Shown here: positions 6,744-8,570 of the stretch, in pieces
How the letters are laid out: each line of letters begins with the position of its first letter
Position numbering within the stretch: position 1 is the stretch's first letter
Source of the DNA: a virus
Taxonomy: Duplodnaviria > Heunggongvirae > Uroviricota > Caudoviricetes
Direction: 5' to 3' (one strand)
IMG/VR virus record: IMGVR_UViG_2740892282_000009
Length of the DNA: 22,170 nucleotides
Translations under genes and position numbers: made by a program
Notes under the pieces: model-generated
Database searches by the model: none
What the model was told of the DNA's origin: nothing
What the model saw: only the letters and a program-made list of their open reading frames with translations

Positions 6744-8570
6744 TTACTCACCAATAACGATATTAACGAATGCTTCAGAATGAGCAAGTGCAATATCTGA
6801 GTAATCCCATACGCGGTAAACGATAGTGTTACTTGAACGATAAGTAGTATCGTCAAAATCCACTTCCTGTCCTTCCCAATTTGCGATAATTACATTACTG
6901 AAATCACCAATTAGGATCTCACCATCTGCAACGAATTCAGAAACAACTACCTGTACTTCATCTGCTAACCACATAGCTTCACTACGATAGCCTTCAACCA
7001 TCGCTTTAGCGGCGGTGTTATCAAGTACGGCAATCTGACGTAAAGTAGAAAGAGTCTTGGCATTCATCACGGCTTTCGCAGCTCGAACATTCACGTTAGC
7101 TTGTGCCAGTTGAGCAACAGCTTTTTGGACATCTTCAAGAGTGATAGAACCCGCAGTAGCAACGTTCAGTACTGGAGCAGCCGCAACGATTTTATCCATT
7201 ACGTTTTGTTCCAAGCCCTGAGCCGCATAACGCATTAACTCAGACTGTACGAATGTTTCAATATTTGGAGCAGTAAGAATTGCAGTTTTACTTAGTGGAA
7301 TAGCACCACCGAATGCTTTTGGTGTTAGGGTAACTTTAGTGAAGTTAGCAATAGAATCATCTTGTGCTTCTGCTTCGCCGTAGAATTTAAATACCGGAGC
7401 TACACCATTAGCTTTAGGAATGGAAAGATTACCACGACCAGCCAAGCCTGAATAAACAGTAGTATTTAGTTCACCAAGAGCAGATAGCTTTAATAGCTCT
7501 GGAATATATTGGTCTTGTAGATCATCTGCGACTACACCAGCAGCCGTAGTAGTATTAGTTGAAGGTACTACAGCACGTACATAACCATTCTTACCGAACT
7601 CATAACCTTCAAGAGAGGTTTTATCACCGGCTTTGATAGCACGTAGCATATCCTTTAATAGATTTTTATCCATCGATTTGATTTCCTTATCATGATTAGG
7701 ATTGTTTTTAATGTCATTCAATTGACGTTTGAAATCGGTCACGGTAATTCCTTTACCAATGGCATCCGATACATCAATATTAAGTACTTTACCGAGTGCT
7801 TCTAATTCGCGTACACGTTCAGTATCATCAGTACTATTTATAATTTCCGGTTCTTCACCTTGTACTTTGTTGAGTAAGTCAGGACGTTTAGAAAGAATAT
7901 CTAAAAGTTCTTCATCACTTAGATCGCGTTTAACTTCATCTACGTGTTCTGCTACTTCTTCAACTTCGTCTTTAACTTCCTGTTCGGTAGCGTCTACTGT
8001 CGTTTCAATTTCGCTATCGTTATTTTTTTCTTCCATGAATTGATCCTTTTGAATTGTTTCACCTGCTTTATTTAGTGAATCAATTTCAATATCGGATTCC
8101 ATTGAACGGCCTACGCCTACAGAAGCATCTGCTGGTACTGTAACTAAGCTAATTTCATAGATTTCATAATCGGAAACGTAGATATTATTTCCAGAAATGT
8201 AGTAATCATTAATGTTATATCCAATACTGATATGTGTTAGTACGCCTTCCTGAATCATTACCCATTCATCATTAGCGGTAGTACTAATACGTAGCGTTGC
8301 ACGTCCTACACGGTCGGCGTCCATATGTGCAGATACAACAGCACCAATGAGATCATCACGATTATGATTAAAGAGTACTGCACCATTTTGATTAAGACGG
8401 CGTAGGTCTGCGTTATCGGAACCGCATAGAAGGATTTCATTATAGATTTCACCATTGATTTCACGCTCTACTGGTGTTTCTGAGCAAAACGCTACATCGA
8501 TAGTTCGCGATTCTGTATTAATCGCCTGTAGGGGTATCGTTAGTTCCCTCTTCTGGTTTTTGATTTCCAT
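6744..8570 (-). CDS. Prohead protease (HK97/S78-type) - acidic linker - major capsid protein (HK97 fold), single 608-aa ORF
   Basis: N-terminus carries the prohead-protease pattern ([15 protein letters not shown] ... HISIGYNI ... [10 protein letters not shown]), compared with HK97 gp4 from memory. The middle is acidic and helical ([31 protein letters not shown]). The C-terminal 280 aa resembles an HK97-type capsid protein. No in-frame stop between the domains. Confidence 0.7.

Follow-up and report, generated by a model that had tools for sequence, protein, structure and literature searches.

Conserved internal ribosome-binding sites suggest nested translation of a fused prohead protease-scaffold-capsid gene in a lambda-like enterobacterial prophage

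The window analysed here, i.e. the whole stretch of 22,170 nucleotides (nt) of the tailed-phage record IMGVR_UViG_2740892282_000009 (IMG/VR), contains a gene in which a prohead protease and an HK97-type major capsid protein are encoded in one open reading frame (ORF). The ORF starts with ATG, has no internal stop codon and codes for a protein of 608 amino acids (aa) and 66.7 kDa (the coordinates of all features are given in Table 1). The initial annotation had reported, without giving the strand, that no stop codon separates the protease and capsid parts; this is correct, and the gene lies on the minus strand. Judged by its sequence and its relatives, the gene is genuine and functional, serves head assembly and belongs to a lambda-like enterobacterial prophage, and its conservation pattern suggests that it is translated from more than one start codon. 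As a fusion it is of a known kind: PHROG 617 'major head protein' aligns with the protein over its whole length (aa 2-603 on positions 5-620 of the 626-position profile, E-value (E) 6e-81), identifying the present copy as a new member of this family at the level of profile searches, and the hit of PHROG 4523 'major head and protease protein' falls on the N-terminal half.

The N-terminal part is a prohead protease of the S78 family. Pfam Peptidase_S78 (PF04586) matches aa 61-150 with 33.1 bits at a curated cut-off of 21, PHROG 80 'head maturation protease' matches the fusion protein (E 6.6e-14), and the domain has the prohead-protease/herpesvirus-assemblin fold, i.e. the N-terminal assignment made earlier from the sequence signature holds at the profile and at the fold level. 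His69 and Ser115 are invariant in 37/37 homologues of a protein alignment. We take them to be the equivalents of the catalytic pair His65/Ser114 of HK97 gp4, based on similar spacing and not on a superposition, and by this analogy they may well be the catalytic residues. The domain is predicted to act proteolytically on capsid/scaffold precursors.

The capsid assignment holds as well. Pfam Phage_capsid (PF05065) matches aa 346-604 with 65.6 bits (cut-off 24.2) and covers profile positions 4-278 of 280. A Foldseek search with the capsid body yields the capsid of phage R4C (PDB 8gta, E 4e-15) and many HK97 gp5 entries (target TM-scores 0.6-0.7), and a sequence search of the PDB also finds 8gta (E 2.8e-10). 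Thus, the C-terminal part is of HK97 type, as had been proposed, and by analogy to R4C, the distant relative in which this has been seen, it is predicted to form the shell.

The middle region connects the two. An AlphaFold (AF2) model of the whole protein is of moderate confidence (mean predicted local distance difference test score (pLDDT) 63) and consists of a beta-rich domain (about aa 15-144), a disordered acidic stretch (aa 145-217, pLDDT <50), a short helix (aa 219-228), a small helical bundle modelled with confidence (aa 247-289), a low-confidence stretch with a short helix (aa 303-314, or 303-320 at its widest), and the well predicted capsid body (aa 354-608); low-confidence segments part the three helical regions from one another. 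The initial annotation had described the middle region as acidic and helical. Its acidity is evident (33% Asp plus Glu over aa 161-250), whereas only the C-terminal part is helical and the rest is predicted to be disordered. The linker is poorly conserved and rich in insertions and deletions (indels) among the homologues. The bundle contains many invariant residues, its helices (aa 247-263, 268-272 and 277-289) being modelled at a pLDDT of ~78, and it may serve as scaffold or as capsid-binding core. Opposite the acidic linker, a Ser-rich antisense ORF of 104 aa (7729-8043, plus strand) is most likely not a gene and would simply mirror the GAA/GAG-rich coding strand.

The single frame is conserved far beyond the present element. 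A protein search returned 702 relatives, and nearly all of the 120 listed are ~600-650 aa long and carry both Pfam domains. Among the matches listed, more than 100 full-length homologues with both domains and 44-99% identity come from independent genomes and metagenomes, their sources being E. coli, Enterobacter, Kosakonia, Citrobacter, Salmonella and metagenomes; they are named 'phage major capsid protein' or 'HK97 family major capsid protein/prohead protease'. When one genome per species was scanned, 209 loci were found, and in all full-length loci that were extracted (54/54, many phyla) the gene is a single ORF. These loci span from a 99%-identical prophage of Scandinavium lactucae to Verrucomicrobiota, Gemmatimonas and Cloacimonadota at 23-29% identity. 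In a search with aa 1-299 alone, a length of 570-690 aa was again typical, being that of most among the best 150 cluster representatives. The uninterrupted frame is also found in 49 unique coding sequences (CDS) of the enterobacterial subfamily, in a 100%-identical IMG/VR contig and in two cultured phages with finished genomes, VP882 (gp07, 632 aa) and R4C (gene 006, vBDshSR4C_006, 629 aa).

It is therefore excluded that a hidden stop codon or frameshift separates two genes, which the initial annotation had named as a risk. The idea of an assembly or sequencing artefact, in which a lost stop codon or a frameshift makes separate protease, scaffold and capsid genes look fused, draws on the fact that most tailed phages keep protease and capsid in two genes and on one relative (L146/L147, discussed below) that does hold the capsid part in another frame. 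Given that the same open frame recurs in all the independent sets listed above, including the finished genomes, we regard such an artefact as extremely improbable. 'Split' annotations in E. coli with prohead protease and capsid as separate CDS (H46, H50) were rejected as a natural split, and they are uninformative because portal and terminase are in pieces there as well, indicating frameshift-ridden assemblies or decayed prophages. A protease-scaffold protein of 297 aa that ends at the junction to the capsid part (P0151) is cut by an insertion of the IS3 family. The statement that protease and capsid are usually separate genes is true, yet the fusion is a recognised, widespread architecture and no rarity. 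Fused protease-capsid genes are described for Arthrobacter clusters AM, AU and AN (PMC5513430) and for Rhodobacter cluster RcC (PMC8601537), annotators use 'major capsid and protease fusion protein' as a standard term, and the literature on several phage groups calls the fusion 'unusual' or 'apparent'.

Inside the frame and ahead of the capsid domain we find two pairs of a Shine-Dalgarno (SD) motif AAGGA and an in-frame ATG, at M179 and M300, i.e. internal ribosome-binding sites (RBSs) and starts of the kind that had been envisaged for the capsid moiety. Their conservation was analysed in a codon alignment of the 49 unique CDS of the enterobacterial subfamily and in a protein alignment of 37 homologues; the conserved-SD score of an alignment column was defined as the weakest anti-SD duplex energy among the sequences (543 columns). 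M300 is invariant in the protein alignment and its surroundings are poorly conserved. On the nucleotide level ATG300 is present in 49/49 CDS, each time with AAG-GA(A/T) at 7 or 10 nt ahead (49/49); gene-wide, AAG makes up only 25% of the Lys codons. ATG179 is found in 47 of the 49 CDS. The two residues that encode its SD motif vary (KD, KE, ER, EG, EE, ED, GE), and a GG-containing purine motif is kept throughout. Where Glu precedes a GAN codon (Glu/Asp) at this site it is always encoded by GAG (24/24), as compared to 40/487 (8%) gene-wide, and 24 of those 40 are the ones at the ATG179 site; where Glu precedes Gly (GGN), GAA or GAG is used.

The top four conserved-SD columns of the 543 are 179/180 and 298/300, and Met105, the sole other conserved internal Met, has no SD motif in the column scan. 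In an alignment of 20 sequences, aa 11-14 seemed to hold a third conserved-SD site, but no start codon goes with it and it was gone with 49 sequences. The portal gene served as control: the same scan over 49 relatives returned one conserved SD in 479 columns, which is the true RBS of the fusion gene, and no SD at any of the four conserved internal ATGs. Additionally, in 90-100% of the sequences the local mRNA at both internal starts has less structure than the average of the gene, which does not hold for control Met codons. Taken together, the conserved RBS-ATG pairs suggest that the gene also makes a scaffold-capsid and a capsid-only protein, i.e. that the internal starts may be used.

The first of the two starts has counterparts throughout the wider family. 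In VP882 gp07 the only strong in-frame SD-start pair is at M185, in R4C the strongest one is at M189 (GGAGGA, -9.5 kcal/mol), and both are located just past the 'PAD...GxGR' end of the protease domain. We scanned 46 distant fusion loci for an ATG with an SD free energy of <= -5 kcal/mol at <=60 aa after the protease-end motif, random windows of the same genes being the null. Such a post-protease SD-ATG pair is present in 38/46 loci, as compared to 4.2 expected (binomial P ~6e-32, the loci being very divergent, yet not fully independent); it is the best SD-start pair of the gene in 20/46 and ranks first or second in 32/46. ATG300 was rejected as a family-wide start: at the corresponding position in 'DIG[LM]S...FSFxRA' the codons are ATG (19), TTG (7), CTG (9) and others (7), with no SD.

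We found no mention of nested starts or internal cistrons in fusion genes and no experimental analysis of their expression in the literature, subscription journals being thinly covered, and nested products are unannotated in the VP882, R4C and RcRhea/RcCronus records and papers examined. Thus, while the fusion itself is known, the sequence-based evidence for nested translation appears to be the new element.

Internal initiation would not suffice to generate the mature shell protein. The capsid chain in the R4C virion (PDB 8gta) corresponds exactly to the last 268 aa of the 629-aa product. As it begins well downstream of any start codon, cleavage is also required. The start of the R4C chain ('...NTGTATA/GGVLVAQDY', the slash marking the boundary) aligns with '...NTTT/AAGVVADDL' in our protein, which by analogy predicts a mature N-terminus near A343. 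The position equivalent to M300 is, in the wider family, more likely a part of the removed pro-region. The R4C capsid has T=7 symmetry with 415 copies of the protein (R4C structure paper); protease domain and cleavage are unmentioned in that paper, and no protease is among the structural genes it gives.

The two parts of the gene have discordant histories. Two relatives (P0039 and P0061) that are 99/97/89% identical through aa 299 are only 25-31% identical after it, and the switch is at aa 289-292, immediately 5' of the AAGGA-ATG300 pair, i.e. similar protease-scaffold modules are joined to unrelated capsid modules. Mosaic joints in phages usually lie at gene boundaries. Moreover, a frame-split relative exists in two independent metagenome assemblies (L146, ERZ28643306, positions 1440-1611; L147, ERZ27294512) that are 100% identical over 916 nt. 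Here, an A-run that is shorter by 1 nt shifts the capsid part to a different frame, preceded by TAA TAA, which leaves the ATG300 equivalent as the only possible capsid start. The protease-scaffold ORF of 290 aa keeps the ATG179-type start, resulting in overlapping genes in different frames.

The initial annotation had offered a self-processing polyprotein or internal initiation like that of Nu3 in lambda gene C as alternatives; the conserved RBS-ATG pairs and the R4C cleavage favour both together. We thus consider it likely that this functional head-assembly gene is a nested gene of the lambda C/Nu3 kind which runs on into the capsid protein and whose products are then processed by proteolysis. 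One mRNA would be translated from three in-frame starts, giving products with a common C-terminus: ATG1 would yield the 67-kDa protease-scaffold-capsid protein, ATG179 a 47-kDa scaffold-capsid protein, which would correspond to HK97 gp5 (delta domain included) and to Nu3 in lambda C, and ATG300, within the enterobacterial subfamily, a capsid protein of 33 kDa that has a short pro-segment. The three products may co-assemble on the portal through the common capsid domain, and therefore the protease would enter the prohead as N-terminal extension of a subset of the subunits. A minority of full-length subunits would then carry the protease inside the prohead, where it would trim all species N-terminal to approximately A343 to the ~28-kDa capsid protein. 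The relative yields, the co-assembly and the exact cleavage site in this scheme are our extrapolation from the gene and its relatives.

Alternatively, only the 608-aa protein might be made, every subunit carrying its own protease and scaffold that are cleaved off inside the prohead, and the internal SD-ATG pairs would be relics of once-separate genes or translational pause sites at domain boundaries. A single frame without stop is what such a polyprotein needs, cleavage is needed anyway, as R4C demonstrates, and the wider family evidently works without the ATG300 motif. The mosaic junction means that the modules were once or still are exchanged separately, so that the motif could be a relic, and by our own estimate ~415 copies of a 38-kDa N-terminal extension would fill about half of a T=7 prohead, which is crowded but possible. 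Relics, however, would be expected to decay, whereas the rare synonymous codons on which the SD motifs depend are fixed across divergent lineages, and a post-protease SD-ATG pair occurs in 38 of the 46 very distant genes where 4.2 are expected. Pausing, in turn, requires no ATG at a fixed distance of 5-10 nt, and the portal control shows that conserved SD motifs are otherwise absent from coding sequence here. We therefore regard a pure self-processing polyprotein as rather unlikely.

Several points weigh against translation from internal starts. The ATG300-type start is restricted to the enterobacterial subfamily, the equivalent elsewhere being Leu or a Met without SD. The aligned sequences are related, and counts like 49/49 overstate the number of independent events. 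K295/E296 could be conserved for protein reasons, e.g. as cleavage site, and the M300 product, having no scaffold part, might be assembly-incompetent alone. A dead prophage or a homopolymer error could account for the frame-split variant, and the R4C paper makes no statement on how the boundary of the 268-aa chain was set. The acidic, purine-rich CDS also raises the chance of SD-like motifs; the codon-choice and random-window controls argue against this objection. A search with aa 300-608 for stand-alone capsid genes that start at the M300 equivalent returned only partial proteins at contig ends and is uninformative on this point.

Among known systems, Vibrio phage VP882 (gp07), Dinoroseobacter phage R4C (vBDshSR4C_006) and the Rhodobacter phages RcRhea/RcCronus (PHROG 617) have the same three-part single ORF of ~600-630 aa. 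This group also shares the gene order (gpA-type terminase, gpW-like protein, lambda-family portal, fusion); its proteins align with ours over the full length but are distant (26-29% identity), and VP882 and R4C have the post-protease RBS and ATG, as does the present gene, but not ATG300 with AAGGA. The actinobacteriophage fusions (Arthrobacter AM, AU and AN, Microbacterium EE, Rhodococcus RRH1) also combine maturation protease and capsid subunit in one gene, a combination that has its own annotation category.

Phage lambda has the same neighbourhood (Nu1-like, gpA, W-like, lambda-family portal, FII-like); no gpD-like decoration gene was seen. As in C/Nu3, a post-protease in-frame start with its own RBS is predicted to give a co-terminal, scaffold-containing product. 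In lambda, however, the nested product ends before a separate capsid gene, whereas here the frame continues into the capsid; the gene would thus work like C/Nu3 but lies outside that layout because no stop codon precedes the capsid domain. The frame-split variant recreates the layout of C/Nu3 plus E. The proteins differ in type as well, since our protease is of the S78/assemblin fold and our capsid belongs to PF05065, whereas lambda gpC is a different peptidase of the ClpP/S49-like type.

In HK97 (gp4 and gp5; also T5 pb11/pb8) protease (PF04586) and capsid (PF05065) are of the same families as ours. There, the capsid protein bears the scaffold (delta domain) at its N-terminus, and the protease cuts this domain off. 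The predicted M179 product would be gp5-like, and our delta-like region is longer, with ~164 aa that are largely acidic and disordered. The HK97 protease is encoded by a separate gene and targeted to the prohead non-covalently, whereas in the present gene it is covalently upstream in the same frame. [quoted passage not shown] In HSV-1 UL26/UL26.5 and HFTV1 gp17/gp17.5 the capsid protein has a separate gene, whereas here the capsid itself is the common C-terminus.

We lean slightly towards a rule for the whole family, across many bacterial phyla, by which the fusion genes would be nested genes and no plain polyproteins: an unannotated post-protease cistron would provide the gp5-like bulk subunit of the shell and a rarer full-length protein would carry the protease covalently, while ATG300 would add a third tier, a capsid protein without scaffold, in the enterobacterial subfamily. 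A single-nucleotide indel would then convert the lambda type (C/Nu3 plus E) into the HK97 type (scaffold fused to capsid) and vice versa.

Table 1. Features of the fusion gene and of its packaging/head neighbourhood (positions in the window; aa numbering refers to the 608-aa protein)
Feature	Position	Strand	Details
Whole ORF	6744..8570	-	Prohead protease and HK97-fold major capsid protein, with acidic linker and helical scaffold-like core between them
Main SD motif	8580..8586	-	AAGGAAG, 9 nt upstream of ATG1 (8568-8570), inside the portal gene at its 3' end
S78/HK97-type prohead serine protease domain	8103..8549	-	aa 8-156, ends in the conserved VPAD...GVGRS motif
His69 codon	8364..8366	-	Candidate catalytic histidine, invariant 'LFNH'
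Ser115 codon	8226..8228	-	Candidate catalytic serine, invariant 'ISIGY'
Acidic linker	7833..8102	-	aa 157-246, length-variable, mostly disordered
Internal start 1	8034..8048	-	AAGGA (8044-8048), 7-nt spacer, ATG179 (8034-8036); predicted product 430 aa, 46.9 kDa, scaffold and capsid
Helical bundle	7704..7832	-	aa 247-289, conserved, candidate scaffold or capsid-binding core
Mosaic (recombination) junction	7695..7706	-	aa 289-292
Internal start 2	7671..7688	-	AAGGA (7684-7688), 10-nt spacer, ATG300 (7671-7673); predicted product 309 aa, 33.2 kDa, capsid and basic pro-segment of 43 aa
Pro-segment	7545..7673	-	aa 300-342, isoelectric point 9.2, predicted to be removed at maturation (by analogy to R4C)
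Predicted mature capsid protein	6744..7544	-	~A343-E608 and stop codon, 266 aa, 28.4 kDa, HK97 fold
Nu1-like small terminase	12364-12912	-	
gpA-type large terminase	10569-12458	-	
gpW-like protein	10026-10556	-	
Lambda-family portal	8518-10026	-	
FII-like connector	6415-6738	-	

The packaging/head module around the fusion gene lies wholly on the minus strand, and the neighbouring packaging and head genes are all intact. The first 53 nt of the fusion ORF (8518-8570) are also the last of the upstream portal gene, and this start ahead of the portal stop codon, together with an RBS inside the portal CDS, suggests translational coupling. The G+C content is 38% for the window and 39.5% for the fusion gene. 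The closest genomic match is the prophage in the enterobacterium S. lactucae mentioned above; this 99%-identical locus departs from the window downstream of a 156-aa gene. A megablast search of the whole window against phage genomes matched only the first 297 nt, i.e. no close cultured relative is among the deposited phage genomes. This segment, which covers ORF 4-279 (91 aa, PHROG 21932, unknown function), recurs at the end of Escherichia phage phi467 with 99.6% identity and in a Salmonella phage fragment with 86%.

The fusion might be real in the DNA and nonetheless belong to a defective prophage in which the gene decays and is no longer expressed or functional. The tail module would fit such a decay, as it is atypical, having a tube-like protein with a tape-measure-like C-terminus, no evident separate genes for tape measure and chaperones and an inserted membrane-protein gene on the opposite strand; the downstream divergence of the Scandinavium locus would fit as well. 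The ORF, however, is intact and holds all residues that are invariant in the family, including His69 and Ser115, identical or 99%-identical copies exist in several independent contigs, and the surrounding packaging and head genes are intact, which renders decay very unlikely.

The tube-like protein (4900-6003, minus strand, 367 aa) matches the major tail protein family PHROG 158 with its N-terminal 153 aa, whereas its C-terminal 200 aa resemble the C-termini of proteins of the tape measure type (PHROGs 13674, 1506 and 21688). An E. coli relative has only the N-terminal 174 aa in common (40% identity) and another C-terminus. Separate tape-measure or chaperone genes are not evident between this gene and the one for the distal tail protein; it could represent an unusual short-tail design or a deletion that fused tube and tape-measure genes. 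The only plus-strand gene in the minus-strand tail module (4254-4892) encodes a predicted membrane protein of 212 aa (Pfam DUF6216, 78.7 bits) that has no PHROG match; its true start is likely the ATG at codon 7. Situated between the genes for the distal tail protein and the tube-like protein, it resembles an inserted moron or cargo gene. Upstream of the terminase genes lie a gene for a DUF3800 protein (13700-14854, plus strand, PHROG 12991, E 8.5e-119) and, on the minus strand, genes for a protein with a weak DUF6998 match (16433-17224; 26.8 bits, just under the Pfam cut-off of 27) and for an HNH endonuclease (17225-17953). Cos phages commonly have an HNH gene close to the terminase.

To annotators of phage genomes the fusion itself is ordinary, but it raises the question of how the ratio of protease, scaffold and capsid is set from one frame. 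The conserved internal RBSs offer a testable answer, namely differential initiation as in lambda C/Nu3 and in herpesvirus UL26/UL26.5. Hundreds of genomes annotate the gene as a single 'major capsid protein' of ~600 aa, and structural and proteomic work on R4C and VP882 would gain from knowing the likely precursor species and the likely cleavage point. If differential initiation holds true, the lambda-type and the HK97-type layouts of head genes would be states that are just one indel apart.

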